Positions 6,299 to 48,085 of a stretch of 64,000 nucleotides of DNA are shown here, in pieces. Source of the DNA: Escherichia phage EC_OE_11; the sequence record OQ108497.1. The stretch is one strand, 5' to 3'. Numbering within the stretch: position 1 is the stretch's first letter; each line of letters starts with the position of its first letter. The notes beneath the pieces are model-generated. The model ran no database searches. It was not told where the DNA came from and saw only the letters and a program-made list of their open reading frames with translations. Both the position numbers and the translations under genes were made by a program.

Positions 6299-6528
6299 TC
6301 AACATTATCGTGACTACGTGAAAAACGTTCCCAAACATCTTCATCGACTCGTAAAGCTATACAAGGATAGACGTTATCATTGATCATTTCAATTGAATAA
6401 ACATCCACATTGTCTTCGTCTTCGATGAACATCATTGCAAACTGTTCTAAATGTTTCCTAATGTAATGTACATCCTCTTCTGTAAGACCAATAACAAGAT
6501 AACTTGCAACGATAACGCCATCTTTCAT
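6250..6528 (-). CDS. hypothetical protein
   Basis: 92-aa ORF. Confidence 0.45.
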   Translation of the reverse strand: MKDGVIVASYLVIGLTEEDVHYIRKHLEQFAMMFIEDEDNVDVYSIEMINDNVYPCIALRVDEDVWERFSRSHDNVECSMVMSQNNILGVLH

Positions 6529-6538
6529 CTATATCTCC

Positions 6539-7048
6539 TTAGCGATAGAATTGATGTTCTTTGTAGCGGTACACTAGAACCATATCTTTTTCCCAGTGTG
6601 CTTTTATTGTAGATTTTTTAAAGTATAATGCGCCTTTTGTAATATCTAATGCAATTCGTAATTCTGGAAAATGGTTATCGAGATAAAGTAGACGTTCTGC
6701 TATAGCCTTAGCTTCCTTCCACTTATCGTGTTCCATAACATTGAATGTCTTCGTGTAAGAGAATTGTCCTTTTTGAAACAAAACTTCTTTTATAGTATCA
6801 GGGAAATATGAATCTCTCGCCCTATTCAATACTACATTACCAACAGCAGACATACCGCGCTTTCCTTGATTACGACTTTCTGCATAGATTGCACAAGCTA
6901 ATAGATTTTCTTTACTATCACGCTTTGTACACTTGTGAACTACTTTAGCAGTTTTTACGTTTGCAGCTTCGGCTTGCGCCACAACAGGTGTAAATGTAAA
7001 AGCAGTTAAGGATAGTAACGCAATTGCGACAAAGGTTTTTATTGACAA
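6539..7048 (-). CDS. SleB-like cell wall hydrolase with N-terminal signal/SAR sequence (candidate endolysin)
   Basis: Signal-like N-terminus then CAIYAESRNQG...VGNVVLNRARD...QFSY motifs of SleB/Hydrolase_2 family. Confidence 0.75.
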   Translation of the reverse strand: MSIKTFVAIALLSLTAFTFTPVVAQAEAANVKTAKVVHKCTKRDSKENLLACAIYAESRNQGKRGMSAVGNVVLNRARDSYFPDTIKEVLFQKGQFSYTKTFNVMEHDKWKEAKAIAERLLYLDNHFPELRIALDITKGALYFKKSTIKAHWEKDMVLVYRYKEHQFYR

Positions 7049-7111
7049 ACTTGCCTCCTATTTTGTTAAACGAACTTTTATTGTAACACAGAAGAGGCTG
7101 TTTTGCAAGTG

Positions 7112-9542: not shown

Positions 9543-10098
9543 TGTCTTCTCCTTTACCTGCTCTCAAGCCTAAATAGAAAGCCTCTCTGGTGATCTTTTG
9601 CAACTCGTTTAAAGAGATAGTTACAACTAAATCATCTTCAATTTCTAGCCTTGAGTCTTCTTCTGTCTCAATGCAAGTATTATGCACTTTGTGGTAAGGA
9701 TTGTCAACACGTTTAAATTTATTATTTTCAGTGCTGAAGAAGCAATCTGGATCTTCTTCTCCATCACCCCAGCCCTGGTTAGGGTCTTCTTCAGATCTTT
9801 CTGTTGGGATCTCACCTGTAAAGTGCTCTTCTAATACCAGAGCAATACCATCCCCAAGATCGGAAGAGAACATCAAATTACAAACTTCTTCCCAAGGCAT
9901 AGACCACTTGAATCTTTTACGATTGCCATGTTTATCTTCTTCGTTAGAGAAAACACCACCATAGCTATCATAATTGCCATACATCTCTTCAACAACTTTA
10001 CCACCTTTCAAAAGAAATAGGTAGCAAGGAGAGCCATCGAAAGAGGTAGAAAGAGCAGCATTACCAGACTCTTTGCACAAGAAACTAAAGCACCCCAT
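9535..10098 (-). CDS. hypothetical protein
   Basis: 187-aa ORF. Confidence 0.5.
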   Translation of the reverse strand: MGCFSFLCKESGNAALSTSFDGSPCYLFLLKGGKVVEEMYGNYDSYGGVFSNEEDKHGNRKRFKWSMPWEEVCNLMFSSDLGDGIALVLEEHFTGEIPTERSEEDPNQGWGDGEEDPDCFFSTENNKFKRVDNPYHKVHNTCIETEEDSRLEIEDDLVVTISLNELQKITREAFYLGLRAGKGEDSA

Positions 10099-32444: not shown

Positions 32445-33572
32445 ATGAAATACACGATTTATGGTGATATTGTAAGTGTAAATAAAGATATGGGTGTGGA
32501 ATCTAATTATCTTCCACCTGGATTCTATACTGTTAGTCGTGATCCCCTTGGCAATTATTTTTTAAGCCGTGGTAATCTAACAGGTGTACCGGATGTTCTG
32601 TATGGTGAAACAGAAAAACGAGCAAATCACGTTATCCGTACATTCCATCGCCGGAGTGCACAAGGTAAAAATACAGGTTTGCTTCTGACAGGAACTAAGG
32701 GCAGTGGTAAAACTATGTTAGCCAAGCTCATTAGTCGTGACCTTGTAGAAGAAGGTATTCCAACTATTATGGTTACTCAAGCCTACAGTGATGCTAATTT
32801 CATTGAACTTATTAGCAAGATCACCGACAAAGCAGTGATTATTTTTGACGAGTTTGATAAAGTATATGAGAAGAAACAAGATCAAGAAGCACTTCTCACT
32901 TTGTTAGATGGTACTGGCAGTGGTAATAAACTGTTTATTCTAACTAAAAACAGTGGCTTTATCTCTGAATTCTTTCTAAATCGTCCTAGTCGTGTGTTTT
33001 ATAATTTTAATTATGATAAAATCTCACTAGAAACTATGATTGACTATTTAGATAAAAACCTGGATAACAAAGCACACTTTGATAATTTCCAAAGACTTTG
33101 GGATGTAAGTTTAGAGTTGTCCTTTGATGTGATCCAAGGTATAGTAGAAGAACTTAATTTCTACCCTGATTTATCCTTTAAAGAATGCATCTCTATGATG
33201 GGCGTTTCTTTGGGTGGTGGTAATAAATGGGATATCAGTAGCGTTATTATTAATGGAAAACTTCAGAAAGTTAGCTGGGTATCTAGTTGGCATAACTTTA
33301 CACCTGCAATCTTTTTAGGTGGCTCGTGCACACTAGACGTGTACTTGTCATCTCCAAGTGATGCAGATTCTAAAGAAGCCCTTGCTAATAGCTCTTACGT
33401 GGTTTTTGATGATGAAGGCGATGCTCGAATTCCGTTGAATGCGACAAAAATGAAAGCAGACCTTATCACAGGCGGTAAAATCGTTGTGTTTAGTGATGAT
33501 CCAGAAGATTCTTTCCGTATTGTTCTGGAACCAACTATCACCAATGGTGCAACTTTGGCAAGTGTGTTTTAA
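32445..33572 (+). CDS. AAA+ ATPase (paralog 2)
   Basis: Walker A GTKGSGKT, Walker B IIFDEFDK, FILTKN; collinear with 17558..18718. Confidence 0.7.
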   Translation: MKYTIYGDIVSVNKDMGVESNYLPPGFYTVSRDPLGNYFLSRGNLTGVPDVLYGETEKRANHVIRTFHRRSAQGKNTGLLLTGTKGSGKTMLAKLISRDLVEEGIPTIMVTQAYSDANFIELISKITDKAVIIFDEFDKVYEKKQDQEALLTLLDGTGSGNKLFILTKNSGFISEFFLNRPSRVFYNFNYDKISLETMIDYLDKNLDNKAHFDNFQRLWDVSLELSFDVIQGIVEELNFYPDLSFKECISMMGVSLGGGNKWDISSVIINGKLQKVSWVSSWHNFTPAIFLGGSCTLDVYLSSPSDADSKEALANSSYVVFDDEGDARIPLNATKMKADLITGGKIVVFSDDPEDSFRIVLEPTITNGATLASVF

Positions 33573-33646: not shown

Positions 33647-34819
33647 ATGGTAGCACTAAAATCATGGGAACAATATAAAGAAGAATTAATACCCCTTGCT
33701 AAAAATCACAATATTCAAATCTTGGGTTATGTTGGTGAATGGAAAGGGAACAAGACTAAACTTAAGCTATCTTGCCCTAAACATGGAGAGTGGAACACCA
33801 CGAACATTAATGATTTTAAGAAGGGACGTGGTTGTCCTATCTGTTCTGGTAAGAAGCCGTTAACATGGGAAACAGAATTGCCGATCTTGGAAGAGATAGC
33901 ACAGAAGAGGGGGTATCAGGTGTTAGGGTACGTGGGAGAATGGAAAGGGAATAAAACAAAACTTGATTTGTTGTGTCATTGTGGTAATAAATGGGATACT
34001 ACAAGTATTAACAATTTTAAACGTGGTAGCGGTTGTCCACAATGTAAGAGGGAGAGACAAACAATGTCCGACGATCAACATATTGCAGATTTCTTTTCTA
34101 CAGGGGAATTTAAGGAAGGCACTATCTTCACCAATACAGGGAAACGTAACAAGCGTGATGCAGTATGGATGGTTGAGTGTCCTGTTTGCTCCCATGATGA
34201 ATATGTTCAAGCAGGTGTTTGTGATGGTAAATTTTACTCTGCAGGACATAACCTTAAACAAGGGTATATTCCGTGTCGTTGTGGGAACTATCAGTATACA
34301 GAAGACCAGATCACCTATAGGGTAAAAAAGGAAGTAGAAGGGAAAGGGTATGTCTGGGTAGATTGGATTACCAAACCCTCTTCTATAGGTAAGTTTAAAT
34401 ATCTTTGTCTTGTGCATGGTGAGCAGATAGGGAGTGCTCGTAATTTATTAAGCCTCGGTCAAGGTTGTCCACAGTGTGCTGGTCATAATCAACAGCAATT
34501 ATATATTAATATTGTTAAAGATAATGATATTATAGTTGCTCTTAAGTTTGGCATAGCTAAAGATAGTGACAGGCGATTAAACAATCAAAATAGGCGTAAT
34601 ATGTTTTTTATGGAGCGTATTTGTTTATATGATTTTAGTACAGTGAAACAGTGTAAGGCTGCTGAAAGAGCTATAAAGAAAAAACTAAAAACTGGTATTT
34701 TAACAGCAAGAGAGTTGAAAGATGGTTATACAGAAACAGTAAGTGTTTCTGATTTGGAAAATCTTCAAAAAATTATTACACAATATGGTGGCAAGTTAGT
34801 ATACAGTAAGGAGGTGTAA
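33647..34819 (+). CDS. zinc-ribbon-repeat protein with C-terminal GIY-YIG-like (T5orf172/MUG113-type) domain
   Basis: Two about 45-aa repeats (GYVGEWKGNKTKL..C..G.W.TT.IN.FK.G.GCP.C) plus more CxxC pairs; C-terminal LYINIV...KFGIAKDSDRRL...AERAIKKKL. Confidence 0.45.
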   Translation: MVALKSWEQYKEELIPLAKNHNIQILGYVGEWKGNKTKLKLSCPKHGEWNTTNINDFKKGRGCPICSGKKPLTWETELPILEEIAQKRGYQVLGYVGEWKGNKTKLDLLCHCGNKWDTTSINNFKRGSGCPQCKRERQTMSDDQHIADFFSTGEFKEGTIFTNTGKRNKRDAVWMVECPVCSHDEYVQAGVCDGKFYSAGHNLKQGYIPCRCGNYQYTEDQITYRVKKEVEGKGYVWVDWITKPSSIGKFKYLCLVHGEQIGSARNLLSLGQGCPQCAGHNQQQLYINIVKDNDIIVALKFGIAKDSDRRLNNQNRRNMFFMERICLYDFSTVKQCKAAERAIKKKLKTGILTARELKDGYTETVSVSDLENLQKIITQYGGKLVYSKEV

Positions 34820-35371: not shown

Positions 35372-35585
35372 TATTTTGAAAATTTTTACTTTTATAAAAA
35401 GGGGTGTGGGTTTCATGTACGGAAATCCACCCTCTGAATAATATATCCAGAGTAAATATTATTCTGTACTCTGTTAATAAAGTATTTAATTTGTTTGTTG
35501 GACTATGGTATCTGATCTTTAAAAGGCATACTATCTCTTAACTACTATTTATAACAGAACAGTAAAATCATTTTTATAAAAAGGA

Positions 35586-35790
35586 CAAAATTATTTAAAG
35601 TTTTTACAGATTTTTGGATACAAATTTTGAAAATGAAAAGTTCAAGTTTGGTCAAAATTATTTAAAGTTTTTGTACGTATTTCTATCCAGATTTTGAAAA
35701 TGAAAACTTCAATTTTTTAAAAATTCCCCAGTTTATTTAAAGTTTTTTTGCCTTTTTCCGTAGAAAAATCAAAAATGAAAAGTTCAATTT
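35586..35790. repeat. 3 tandem copies of about 67-bp AT-rich unit
   Basis: Each unit has AAAATTATTTAAAGTTTTT and ATTTTGAAAATGAAAAGTTCAA. Confidence 0.7.
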
Positions 35791-35811
35791 CGTGTTTTTA
35801 TAGGTGTGCGT

Positions 35812-35925
35812 ATGATAATCATTCTCATTTGTAAATGAGAATCATTATCATTTAATTATGTAAGTGATAATCATTCTCAGTAAGAGAATGAGAATCATTA
35901 GCAAATGAGAATTTTTCTCATTTAG
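35812..35925. promoter_or_regulatory. cluster of Fur-box-like motifs (GATAATCATTCTCATT / AATGAGAATCATTATC)
   Basis: At least 5 units in both orientations resembling Fur consensus GATAATGATAATCATTATC. Confidence 0.5.
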
Positions 35926-35929
35926 AGAA

Positions 35930-36480
35930 TAACGCGCAGGGGTGGTGTTTGTCTCGCGCTCCCGTGTCCCTCGCCATACAATAAGAATAGCATAACCAAC
36001 AACAAAAGCAAGCGATTATTTTTATCTTTACATTTCTTTACAAATTTATTTTAGACGAGCTACCGGCGATCAACCTTCCAACCAGTGCCCCTGGTATGTT
36101 AGCCCCGCCTTTACGCCGTGGGGGTGGCGCTTCCTCTTCTGTATGTAAAACAGTATAAGCCCGATCCCTGGGCTTGTCAAGATTATTTTTTGTTTTCTTG
36201 CCAGGAAAGGACACCTAACCAAAAATACATATCGCCCCGCGCCCCTGGCGGGATCTTGCTTTCCCCGCCGCCACTGCAAGCCCATAAATAACCATCAGCG
36301 AACGGATCAAAATGTTCTATCTCTTCCACCTTATGATCGCCCAGGTTGAGAACGGTTTCAACCTTTAAGCCCGTTGCGCTTGCTACCTGGTGCACCGTGC
36401 CGCCTTGCCAGCCCAATGAGTGCATGAGATGTAAAGGAGTATTTGTCATGGTATCGCCCTTTCTTTGATGTGCGCCCTGG
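35930..36480. other. GC-rich compositional island inside AT-rich non-coding hub
   Basis: Visibly GC-rich versus flanks; only weak ORFs. Confidence 0.5.
36183..36449 (-). CDS. hypothetical protein (88 aa) within GC-rich island; possibly acquired
   Basis: ATG 36449 with AAAGGGCG SD-like; atypical codon composition. Confidence 0.3.
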   Translation of the reverse strand: MTNTPLHLMHSLGWQGGTVHQVASATGLKVETVLNLGDHKVEEIEHFDPFADGYLWACSGGGESKIPPGARGDMYFWLGVLSWQENKK

Positions 36481-36714
36481 TTGGCGCGGTAGAAAGATAA
36501 TAGCCGTTTCCTTTATAGATAGCAAGCAAAAAGAAATGAAAAAAAGATTAAAAAATGGTTGACGTTCCTCACCTGGTAGCGTAGTATTCATCTTGTCGAG
36601 GGGGGCAAGGCACAACGACAATAAACAATAGGCGGGTGCAATGCAGGACGGGCAAAGGTGAGGATCTCCACAATCCACCGTCACAATAACATTACTTATA
36701 AAAGGTTGATAACG

Positions 36715-36819: not shown

Positions 36820-36878
36820 TTGACAACGTTTTTTAATCTGATAAGATGTATCACATAGGGCGGCAATAGTGCCGCTCA
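36820..36878 (+). promoter_or_regulatory. promoter + 5'-leader stem-loop cassette (PeSL-like, type B)
   Basis: TTGACA-16nt-TAAGAT then GCGGC-aatagt-GCCGC hairpin, SD, ATG 36900. Confidence 0.55.
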
Positions 36879-36899
36879 TAACAGAAGAGAGAAATAATC

Positions 36900-37175: not shown

Positions 37176-37235
37176 TTGACACTGAAAAATAATTTAGTAA
37201 TATATACCACATAGGGCGGGAAATGGTTTCCCGCC
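37176..37235 (+). promoter_or_regulatory. promoter + stem-loop cassette (type A: GGGCGGGaaatggtttCCCGCC)
   Basis: TTGACA-16nt-TAATAT then 22-nt hairpin. Confidence 0.6.
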
Positions 37236-37257
37236 AAATCAAAGAAAGGGTAACACA

Positions 37258-37626: not shown

Positions 37627-37680
37627 TTGACATTGCACGAAAACCTGATAAGCTATCTTAAAGCGGGAATTGTTCCCGCT
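37627..37680 (+). promoter_or_regulatory. promoter + stem-loop cassette (variant AGCGGGaattgttCCCGCT)
   Basis: TTGACA-16nt-TAAGCT then hairpin. Confidence 0.55.
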
Positions 37681-46308: not shown

Positions 46309-46332
46309 ATAACATTTCATACCAGGGCGCAC

Positions 46333-46360
46333 AAAGCGCCCTTTCTTTTTACCTAAATAA
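46333..46360 (+). terminator. intrinsic terminator
   Basis: GGGCGC-acaaa-GCGCCC + TTTCTTTT. Confidence 0.75.
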
Positions 46361-46554
46361 AGATGATAGCTTTTACCTATCAAAAACGTTCACCGAAAAA
46401 AGTGAATAGATCGCGGTATCGAGCTAATCAAGGAGCAGATGAACAACCATACCATGAAGATCATAAGGCGCTTACAACGTGTTTTAGACCGCTTATTTTT
46501 AATTTCTCAATGTAACTATCGGGCAAAAACAGCCTTTTTCTTGTCTTTCCTCTT

Positions 46555-46572
46555 AAATGATAATCATTCTTA
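46555..46572. promoter_or_regulatory. Fur-box-like motif AAATGATAATCATTCTTA
   Basis: Matches GATAATGATAATCATTATC-type consensus. Confidence 0.45.
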
Positions 46573-46610
46573 TTTATAGCTGATTATTTATGCAATAAAC
46601 TGCATAATGC

Positions 46611-46630
46611 AATAATGATAATCATTCTTA
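46611..46630. promoter_or_regulatory. Fur-box-like motif AATAATGATAATCATTCTTA
   Basis: Second copy about 55 bp downstream. Confidence 0.45.
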
Positions 46631-46924
46631 ACTTATGACCATCTAACCTATAAAATAATAAGTTATCTAACTAAATTAAAGCTAACTATTTCACCTTTAT
46701 TTATAACTTACTGTTACTATCTCATTGATAACCTTATATTAAACAACAATAACTAATATAAATCATTACTAAGCTAAATATAATCTATCTAACCTTTAAA
46801 ACTATAACTATAATCTATCGAATTGTTGCACAAAGTAACTATTAAATTGTTAGTAACATTACTAAATAATTCACATCCTATCTATTTATGATCTAATCTT
46901 TACCTTCCTATCTATTACCTAAGT

Positions 46925-46956
46925 AATCATTTCATACAGCAATCATTTCATACAAC
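46925..46956. repeat. tandem direct repeat AATCATTTCATACA(G/A)C x2
   Basis: Two adjacent 16-bp units in ORF-free AT-rich region. Confidence 0.6.
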
Positions 46957-47019
46957 AACTATAACAAGAAATATAATTAGCAAGCGTATCATTAGCAGCC
47001 TATGCCGGACACATAGGCG

Positions 47020-47165
47020 GCTAATAATAACGCAACTACACACCCCACATAATAACCATCACCGATAGTTATTATCTGTGCTTATGTAGCTTGCAACAAT
47101 TGCAAGCGCAACAATATACATGGTATATTGTATCCCTTACATTGTTGCGGTGCGTTATTATTAGC
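47020..47165. repeat. large dyad-symmetry element: 14-bp inverted repeats flanking about 120 bp with internal hairpins
   Basis: GCTAATAATAACGC at 47020-47033 vs exact reverse complement at 47152-47165; internal CGCAACAAT...ATTGTTGCG hairpin. Confidence 0.6.
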
Positions 47166-47511
47166 TAATGTTTGGAACATTGGCTATAATATAAGCTACA
47201 TATAATAAGCTATTCAATAATAAACATCGTGAATAATGACATTGAAATGAATAATGACACTGATGATCATAATGCGCCACCTTCCAGGGGGCGCTATGTG
47301 AACACAAAGAAATCTTTCTTGTCAAGAAAAATATCACCATTATTGCGCAAAATTATTTATATCTGAATAGATGATTTTTCATACTATTGCCCCTATACAC
47401 TACCTCATTTGTTGCAATGTATCCCCCTATTTGTTGAGCCTATTCTCTTAAAAGCGCAATAAATCAGAATTATCTTGATTTTTAGTGGATTTTATAGTAT
47501 AGAAAATATGC

Positions 47512-47529
47512 AAATGATAATCATTATCA
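47512..47529. promoter_or_regulatory. Fur-box-like motif AAATGATAATCATTATCA
   Basis: Near-consensus Fur-box-like palindrome. Confidence 0.45.
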
Positions 47530-47694
47530 GCTATCTTCCACGGGTGGCACTATTTCACGCCAGATCATTTCATTTGGCAAGGTGTATATAGATGTTTAGA
47601 AATGCCAAGCCATTGATTTACTTAGAATTTATCTGTTTTGTTGTGAGTAGTGCCTTTCTTGCTCAGAAAATAATCAAAAGTCTTATAAGTCATT

Positions 47695-47730
47695 GAATGA
47701 TAATGCAAATGATAATAATTCTCATTGATA
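47695..47730. promoter_or_regulatory. tandem Fur-box-like motifs
   Basis: GAATGATAATGCAAATGATAATAATTCTCATTGA. Confidence 0.45.
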
Positions 47731-47846
47731 TTTGAGGGGGACGGTCGGCAGAAATCGGGGGGCGCTGAAAATCGCGTTAAGCACCTCTCGCAAGCGAGCA
47801 GTATTTTGCGGCAAGTTATTGATATTATTGGCTTTACGCTTATGGA

Positions 47847-47954
47847 AAGGGGGTGTGTCGAAATAAATCGGGTATACCGGAAAATTTTTGTGGCATAGAT
47901 ATTTATTTGTCTATATTATGTACAAAGGGGTGTGTTAAAAATATTAGGTATATA
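47847..47954 (+). repeat. two copies of about 30-bp direct repeat (AAAGGGGTGTGT..AAATA..GGTATA), possible promoter elements
   Basis: 47847-47876 and 47924-47954, about 75 bp apart, upstream of first gene of 48-60 kb cluster. Confidence 0.5.
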
Positions 47955-48085
47955 TAGAATAATTGATAGGGAAATCCTATACTAATTCCTCTATTAATGA
48001 TGCTTCTAGGTTGCTGTTCTTGTAATAGATGAAAAGACGCTATATGATGTGTGGCATGAAACGTAAATTTATAAAGGAGTCTGAT

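Follow-up and report, generated by a model that had tools for sequence, protein, structure and literature searches.

A conserved AT-rich triple repeat beside Fur-box-like sites in phi92-like and rV5-like phages: a possible component of a replication origin

In the primary replication origin of phage T7, the tandem promoters phi1.1A and phi1.1B are followed by an AT-rich segment, and in the T4 origins oriF and oriG a promoter is combined with a downstream unwinding element. Iteron origins (lambda ori, P1 oriR, pSC101 and R6K) carry several direct repeats of 17-22 bp, with roughly helical phasing, at a single locus in AT-rich surroundings. Here we describe an array of three tandem AT-rich units (the triple repeat, 35586-35795) in a 64,000-nucleotide stretch of the Escherichia phage EC_OE_11 genome (OQ108497.1; hereafter the window), which recalls origins of both kinds and which we tentatively interpret as a set of protein-binding sites within a replication origin. 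It is carried by the rV5-like and phi92-like myophages, which turn up in many isolations and find use in therapy cocktails. A literature search returned no account of these repeats or of an origin in these phages and nothing functional in print, and two GenBank records label the array merely as 'repeat_region'.

The locus resembles the T7 and T4 origins in that two tandem promoters lead into AT-rich DNA of low stability, in that the phage encodes a gp4-type primase-helicase, and in that the site lies near but not at one genome end. It differs from them in that its promoters are of the host sigma70 type rather than the phage-polymerase type, its AT-rich segment consists of three ordered repeats whose subsites are invariant, and an array of Fur-box-like palindromes and a candidate structured RNA stand between promoter and AT-rich DNA. 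With iteron origins it shares a single locus, several direct repeats, roughly helical phasing and AT-rich surroundings, together with a lineage-specific repeat sequence of the kind expected where an initiator co-evolves with its sites. Unlike them, it has units of 67-75 bp with two subsites each and lacks sites for DnaA and integration host factor (IHF), and we identified no initiator gene. A further comparison is offered by Repeat Region 3 of the T5-like phages, likewise a large untranslated zone, rich in direct repeats and palindromes, where a terminal block of small early genes has its inner edge. Palindromes of the AAATGAGAATCATTATCATTT type occur in both, 9.6-9.8 kb from the end in T5-like phages and 12 kb from it here; the T5 zone, however, lies within a 10-kb terminal repeat, has paired DnaA boxes and nine DRD repeats, and serves a two-step entry that is experimentally supported. 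Set against these systems, the array is most likely a variant of known cis-acting origin or iteron-type elements rather than a new category.

Anatomy and conservation of the triple repeat

A repeat search of the window resolved one repeat family of three imperfect copies arranged head to tail (35586-35652, 35653-35727 and 35728 to about 35795), with start-to-start distances of 67 and 75 bp. This confirmed the three tandem imperfect AT-rich units that a preliminary description of the DNA had placed after the NADAR gene, with the amendment that their spacing is 67 and then 75 bp rather than a uniform 67. The gene upstream of the array does encode a NADAR-domain protein (Pfam E=2e-36), and the GC fraction of the array region is 0.20-0.23. 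Over 79 nt, units 2 and 3 are 73% and 71% identical to unit 1. Tandem Repeats Finder scored units 1 and 2 only (period 67, 82% matches, score 185), and missed unit 3 because it is more diverged and 8 bp longer.

Each unit contains two conserved subsites separated by 18 bp. All three units carry motif A, TATTTAAAGTTTTT, without a mismatch, starting at 35592, 35659 and 35734. In unit 1 (67 bp), motif A (35592-35605) is followed by the variable spacer and then by motif B, ATTTTGAAAATGAAAAGTTCAA (35624-35645). Unit 2 (75 bp) repeats this arrangement (motif A 35659-35672, motif B 35691-35712) and ends in an 8-bp-longer linker containing TTTTTTAAAAATT, and in unit 3 (motif A 35734-35747, motif B 35766-35787) motif B takes the form of a degenerate palindrome, AAAATCAAAAAT, followed by an exact GAAAAGTTCAA. 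The AAAATGAAAAGTTCAA part of motif B recurs at 35630, 35697 (with one mismatch) and 35772. Two palindromes, TTTAAA and ATTTTGAAAAT, lie within the conserved subsites, the second being exact in units 1 and 2 and degenerate in unit 3. A solitary exact copy of ATTTTGAAAAT starts two bases past the NADAR stop codon (35373-35383), just where the preliminary description had reported one, and a GATATTTTGA-like sequence is similarly placed after that stop in other genera. The six subsites thus alternate between A and B at centre-to-centre distances, taken from the coordinates, of about 32.5, 34.5, 32.5, 42.5 and 32.5 bp, which correspond roughly to whole helical turns, with about three turns from A to B. 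The units abut, are imperfect and 67-75 bp long, and have no unique spacers, which rules out a CRISPR array, as had been judged at the outset. A 36-aa open reading frame (ORF) with a TTG start runs across unit 1 on the minus strand (35545-35655) and is annotated as a coding sequence in some records (e.g. bas62_0107); given the non-coding pattern of conservation, it is almost certainly spurious.

The array region is 97-98% identical to that of Justusliebigvirus (phi92-like) genomes, E. coli myophages of about 148 kb within the Stephanstirmvirinae that include phi92, JohannJBalmer, alia, inny and others, and the window belongs to this genus. Motif A has no further match at 0-1 mismatch in the window, where motif B is likewise confined to the array, and in the complete genome of the relative VEcB (148,885 bp) motifs A and B each occur three times, always within the array. 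The array is therefore real and single-copy, and its motifs recur far beyond chance. When nine Justusliebigvirus genomes were aligned, none of the 42 columns of motif A and none of the 66 of motif B varied (0/108 together), as against 4 of 55 columns in the A-B spacers and 2 of 53 in the linkers between units. Across the whole repeat array 6 of 216 columns varied; the figures were 26 of 214 (12%) in the left flank and 13 of 119 in the Fur-like array. Within the unit 1 spacer the same nine genomes read GGATAC, GGGTAC, CGGTAC or GGCTAC.

The preliminary description had named repeat-number variation among related phages as a check, and we found none: the copy number was three in every genome inspected. 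The region was recovered from 55 records at 95-99% identity, each aligned over at least 80% of the 559-bp query, and the 14 full-length rows listed among them aligned over 557-559 bp as a single gap-free piece, a span that excludes copy-number variation. The repeats are thus neither absent from relatives nor unconserved, which favours a function, and the distribution of variable columns shows the array to be under purifying selection. A neutral minisatellite or variable-number tandem repeat is ruled out by the invariant motifs, the fixed copy number and conservation across subfamilies. Five records titled 'Campylobacter phage' (MG065656.1, MG065689.1 and others; 146,366 bp) carry the region at about 96-97% identity, and look like mislabelled or contaminant Justusliebigvirus genomes. 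Scans of metagenomes and IMG/VR for two copies of motif A 45-70 bp apart returned nearly exclusively unrelated AT-rich repeats and added one Justusliebigvirus contig.

Beyond this genus, the architecture is kept as the sequence changes. Klebsiella phage phi1_175008, from another genus of the Stephanstirmvirinae, has three units with the identical 67/75 spacing and a largely different unit sequence, sharing with the window just (T)TATTTAAA(G/C), a TTTT(G/C)AAAA-like core in two units, and A/T tracts. In Phapecoctavirus and the phiWec186/190 group, units 1 and 3 are kept 138-139 bp apart and unit 2 is degenerate. In the Vequintavirinae, for which we compared PVP-SE1, CR3, KaOmega, several IMG/VR contigs and KPP-1, the same place is occupied by three units of another sequence, GGGT(C/T)CTCGATCG-TTTTC..TTTC-AAA.CGTATTT...AAAAAATTTTT, spaced at 75/67, 74/67 or 78/63 bp. 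The number three and a span of about 141-142 bp from first to third unit are therefore kept across two subfamilies despite turnover of the sequence, as would be expected for the sites of a co-evolving DNA-binding protein. The order of the spacings is 67 then 75 bp in the Stephanstirmvirinae and 75 (or 74) then 67 bp in several Vequintavirinae, with the sum of about 142 bp kept. When units were compared between the subfamilies, local alignment favoured the reverse orientation (z of about 3.5-5.6 in 4 of 5 comparisons), free-end global alignment found nothing in 19 of 20 comparisons, and ungapped comparison favoured the forward orientation at offset -52 (z 5.7). Because these three approaches conflict, we make no claim of unit homology or module inversion between the subfamilies; what we do take to be conserved is the number, position and total span of the units.

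A possible transcription-activated origin and its rivals

We favour, at somewhat less than even probability, a reading in which the array provides iteron-like protein-binding sites at the DNA level and forms the AT-rich core of a transcription-activated replication origin for a T7-type primase-helicase. As in iteron origins, direct repeats at a single locus adjoin AT-rich DNA of low stability, the array and its left flank ranking third and eighth among the least stable 200-bp segments of a 149-kb genome. As in transcription-primed origins, promoters are directed into the AT-rich segment, and a T7-type fused primase-helicase is encoded, the minus-strand ORF at 560-2332 being gp4-like with Toprim_2 and DnaB_C domains. 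The repeats fold no better than shuffled sequences (z of +0.4 and +0.2 on the two strands), and this lack of significant RNA structure favours a DNA-level role. For rV5, a replisome of PolA and a gp4-type helicase has been described and skew analysis found no origin (PMC3606486); the rV5 map includes a 'non-coding' box (PMC3606486), which may correspond to the array region. The preliminary description had offered iterons or protein-binding sites as one explanation. The single-copy locus, the invariant motifs with variable spacers, the conserved number and spacing and the absence of RNA structure all fit that proposal, in which protein binding, like replication as the process served, is the part that we infer.

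Both promoters were assigned from their match to consensus and their conservation. P1 (36152-36180, minus strand) emerged from a consensus scan as a leftward sigma70-type promoter, TTGACA-17-TATACT, that agrees with consensus at 11 of 12 positions, and its hexamers are kept in 11/11 lineages with a variable spacer. The candidate promoter P2 (35984-36011, minus strand; TTGCTT-16-TATTCT) also points leftward, so that its transcript would cross the Fur-like array before reaching the repeats. At the same place, at least 8 of 12 consensus positions are matched in 9 of the 11 lineages (TTGCAA/TTGCCA-17-TATATT in the Vequintavirinae), the count in this window being 7 of 12. A conserved GC-rich segment (35926-35976, minus strand; GACGCGCAGGGGTGGTGTTTGTCTCGCGCTCCCGTGTCCC on the plus strand) would form the leader of the P2 transcript. 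Beyond the array lies a minus-strand hairpin with a U run (35395-35432; minimum free energy -15.3 kcal/mol, z = -2.0), plausibly an intrinsic terminator for leftward transcripts that have passed the repeats, which may also end the NADAR operon.

At such an origin, the host-type tandem promoters P1 (36180-36152) and P2 (about 36011-35984) would fire leftward through the GC-rich segment and the Fur-like array into the 205-bp array. This easily melted DNA could be bent and opened by a protein, of phage or host, that occupies the phased A and B subsites. The primase-helicase and polymerase might then start from either the transcript or the opened duplex, in the manner of the T7 primary origin or T4 oriF and oriG. 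The iteron-like sites would add specificity, as they do in lambda or plasmid origins. An array that served as the origin would be useful for engineering these phages and for their plasmid-based propagation.

Several observations count against the origin. The DnaA box TTWTNCACA and the IHF site WATCAANNNNTTR have no match in 35372-36560; the units are much longer than classical iterons; and the flanking 88-aa ORF (36183-36449, minus strand) belongs to no family in Pfam or PHROGs, leaving no initiator identified; the one hint is an AAA+ ATPase, encoded 2 kb upstream of the array, that weakly resembles DnaC-like helicase loaders and clamp loaders. P2 is weak by consensus in Justusliebigvirus (7/12). 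The zone at 46.6-46.9 kb, which holds the least stable DNA together with short repeats and Fur-like sites of its own, is an equally plausible origin candidate. Finally, an origin of the T7 or T4 type does not need precisely spaced repeats, so that this analogy leaves the anatomy of the array partly unexplained. An origin of the E. coli DnaA/IHF type is ruled out by the missing consensus sites in 35372-36560, and a DnaA-like GGATAC in unit 1 was rejected, as it varies among relatives.

The array might alternatively act on transcription, its units binding an early protein of the phage or a nucleoid protein of the host that blocks or modulates leftward transcription from P1 and P2, possibly with Fur, and that insulates the ATPase-endonuclease-NADAR operon from the early genes, with no role in replication. 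Its setting agrees with this, since it lies exactly between the end of the rightward operon and the first early promoters, with the leftward P1 and P2 aimed at it, the Fur-like array between promoters and repeats, and a terminator-like minus-strand hairpin beyond. AA/TT also recurs in the array with an 11-bp periodicity, which hints at the bent DNA that nucleoid proteins prefer, although the test for it is inflated by the repeat itself. However, the same job could be done by a simple terminator, and a fixed number of three units with a span of about 142 bp over two subfamilies suggests a defined nucleoprotein complex rather than a generic roadblock; we consider an insulator or regulatory array unlikely. 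An entry pause like the T5 injection stop, with about 30 small early genes on the terminal ~12 kb (8% of the genome) entering first and DNA transfer halting at the palindrome and repeat zone until early proteins are made, seems to us improbable, but would mean that two-step DNA transfer is no longer a T5 peculiarity. The T5 A1 protein is of about 60 kDa; here, the ORFs of the 36.5-46.3 kb cluster reach at most 184 aa, leaving no protein of that size. The T5 region, moreover, has 7-8 DnaA boxes (in the T5-like phage EC100, we found boxes at 9751 and 9812), of which there are none in 35372-36560, and it lies inside a 10-kb terminal repeat, whereas here the terminal repeat is 343 bp long and 12 kb distant. 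Early genes here also point towards the end and not away from it, small early-type genes carry on past the terminus, and the three A/B units are without a T5 counterpart. What speaks for such a pause is that the array lies 12.0-12.2 kb inside the right end and is separated from it by nothing but small sigma70-driven genes, that KPP-1 has the same layout 8.5 kb inside its terminal repeat, and that the stack of Fur-like palindromes matches, at the sequence level, the untranslated Repeat Region 3 of T5-like phages, about 9.8 kb from the end. It is in that region, next to 66-bp DRE repeats, that Davison locates the T5 first-step-transfer shear point (bioRxiv 10.1101/866236).

The remaining explanations carry still less weight. 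That the repeats act as RNA, in the 3' part of a leftward transcript (about 550 nt from P2 or 750 nt from P1) that binds or titrates an RNA-binding protein or small RNA, is very unlikely: neither strand of the repeats shows structure beyond shuffled controls, their palindromes TTTAAA and ATTTTGAAAAT are typical of duplex DNA recognition, and the Fur-like array would fall in mid-transcript, even though conserved leftward promoters stand upstream, a minus-strand hairpin with a U run lies downstream, and the adjoining P1 transcript has conserved structure. Terminase recognition sites, of the kind that small terminases bind at pac or cos, are brought to mind by three phased AT-rich repeats, since lambda cosB has three R sites and SPP1 pacR is bent, but the physical ends are 12 kb away (47437-47779), or 8.5 kb in KPP-1. 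Slippage can equally create tandem repeats without function, an origin at odds with the invariant motifs, the fixed copy number and conservation across subfamilies; packaging sites and a neutral tandem duplication together we hold to be highly improbable. The preliminary description had also proposed that the units are stacked promoters served by a phage-specific sigma factor or RNA polymerase, and this we have all but abandoned. Motif A does contain TAAAGTTT, which resembles the -35 element of sigma28 promoters, and the units recur at regular intervals ahead of the early region. Yet the motifs occur nowhere else in 149 kb and so define no regulon; there is no conserved -10 partner; within the units, the consensus scan turned up only a single weak sigma70-type match (9/12); on the plus strand, over 1 kb separates the array from the first gene start downstream; and the early genes use canonical, textbook sigma70 promoters. 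The specific pairing of the sigma28-like -35 TAAAGTTT with a -10 element was rejected on inspection, as the would-be -10 falls in the variable spacer.

Fur-like array and structured RNA in the adjoining region

The array forms the left module of a non-coding region of about 1.2 kb (35372 to about 36560), in which the order of modules is the same in all lineages. This conserved region can now be divided into the triple repeat, a Fur-box-like array, two promoters and a candidate structured RNA; the preliminary description had covered neither the last three modules nor the distance to the genome end. The Fur-box-like array (35807-35925), which starts 17 bp after unit 3 and adjoins the triple repeat in every lineage examined, consists of 4-5 copies of a 7-1-7 palindrome (TGATAATCATTCTCA / TGAGAATCATTATCA). 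The Fur box is 19 bp long, with TGATAATNATTATCA as its 7-1-7 operator consensus, and the phage sites, in a 115-bp cluster, depart from this consensus at 0-2 positions. The window as a whole contains 24 matches to the Fur-like palindrome, against 4.1 expected. Nine sites in the 64 kb have at most two mismatches to TGATAATNATTATCA, and eight of these lie in two large non-coding zones; a complete relative has 12 sites, against about 2.4 expected.

In their 7-1-7 form, their 0-2 mismatches and their clustering, the sites of this neighbouring array, as distinct from the triple repeat itself, resemble the Fur operators of E. coli, for which site clusters of up to about 140 bp have been described (PMC2189734). 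They differ from those operators in that they overlap no strong promoter, lying instead about 50 nt downstream of P2, and in that they belong to a virulent phage with no iron-uptake gene nearby. A BLAST comparison of the array with E. coli genomes for iron-regulated promoters was uninformative at that query length, and a literature search yielded no report of Fur boxes in virulent phages. A stack of Fur-like palindromes also occurs in the injection-stop region of the T5-like phage EC100, at about 9.85-10.0 kb, and the jumbo Klebsiella phage Muenster has a comparable one in its predicted terminal repeat. Such palindromes recur close to the genome ends in three groups of virulent enterobacterial phages that are unrelated to one another, which raises the question of host Fur in phage infection.

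The most widely conserved part of the region is a candidate structured RNA of about 120 nt downstream of P1 (36025-36149, minus strand). Matches to this block occur in 234 phage records across the Stephanstirmvirinae and Vequintavirinae, among them rV5-like, CR3-like, PVP-SE1-like, Mydovirus and Pectobacterium phages. In its consensus structure, one pair covaries between A-U (6 sequences) and G-C (8 sequences), and an invariant G-U pair fits the minus strand only. It corresponds to no Rfam family: a scan of 34-38 kb at E<=1 gave two chance-level hits, neither of them on the repeats or the conserved block. The window contains no tRNAs. The block is followed by a conserved double motif, TTTGTAAAGAAnTGTAAAGA. 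In one Vequintavirinae contig (IMGVR_UViG_2974574029_000001, about 6300-7080), an HNH homing-endonuclease gene splits the RNA region, and the triple repeat, Fur-like sites and P2 are kept to the left of the insertion; an HNH gene is likewise annotated at the RNA block in Klebsiella phage record OY757067.1.

Taking these modules together, it is conceivable, if distinctly doubtful, that triple repeat, Fur-like array, promoters and structured RNA make up a previously undescribed composite region of rV5-like and phi92-like phages, in which Fur bound between promoters and repeats would couple the start of replication, or continued DNA entry, to host iron status. On that view, the T5 injection stop region and the terminal repeat of the jumbo Klebsiella phage would have acquired the Fur-like module either independently or by exchange.

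Genome ends, flanking genes and a second non-coding zone

The position of the array within the genome follows from the annotated ends of relatives. The phi92 record annotates direct terminal repeats of 343 bp, which map to 47437-47779 of the window, and a 342-bp repeat reported for BME3 with PhageTerm falls at that position too, so that the physical genome ends lie within the window. The array accordingly lies inward of the right end by 8.2% of the genome length, where the terminal early-gene block has its inner boundary. The KPP-1 terminal repeat, from which the distance in that phage was taken, is at 116,316-116,829 (PMC9862379). The 'terminal repeat' of phiWec187 was not used, as it is a 148-bp assembly overlap.

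From 36559, the DNA to the right of the region holds about 30 small genes, each of which follows a near-consensus sigma70 promoter and a conserved hairpin. The promoters read TTGACA-16/17-TAAGAT/TAATAT and are immediately followed by the GC hairpin CATAGGGCGGCAATAGTGCCGCTCA or variants of it (e.g. 36820-36880, 37176-37240 and 37628-37680); the phAPEC8 record annotates these hairpins as PHIRE 'promoters'. Small early-type genes stand on both sides of the terminal repeat, all of them on the plus strand. A second non-coding zone (46309-48028) contains the terminal repeat and four Fur-like sites (46558, 46616, 47515 and 47710), that at 47515 being a perfect match. Here, to the left of the terminal repeat, lies the least stable and most AT-rich DNA of the genome (46600-46960, GC fraction about 0.20), a possible alternative origin or terminase-binding zone, with many short TATCTAAC / ATCTATC-like repeats and two tandem copies of the 16-bp AATCATTTCATACAAC.

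To the left of the NADAR gene are genes for a CapR/T5orf172-type endonuclease-like protein (33647-34819) and an AAA+ ATPase (32445-33572). The ATPase, 2 kb upstream, has weak similarity to DnaC-like helicase loaders and to clamp loaders among its PHROG hits, and the endonuclease gene is 1398 nt long in phage alia and 1173 nt in phage inny.

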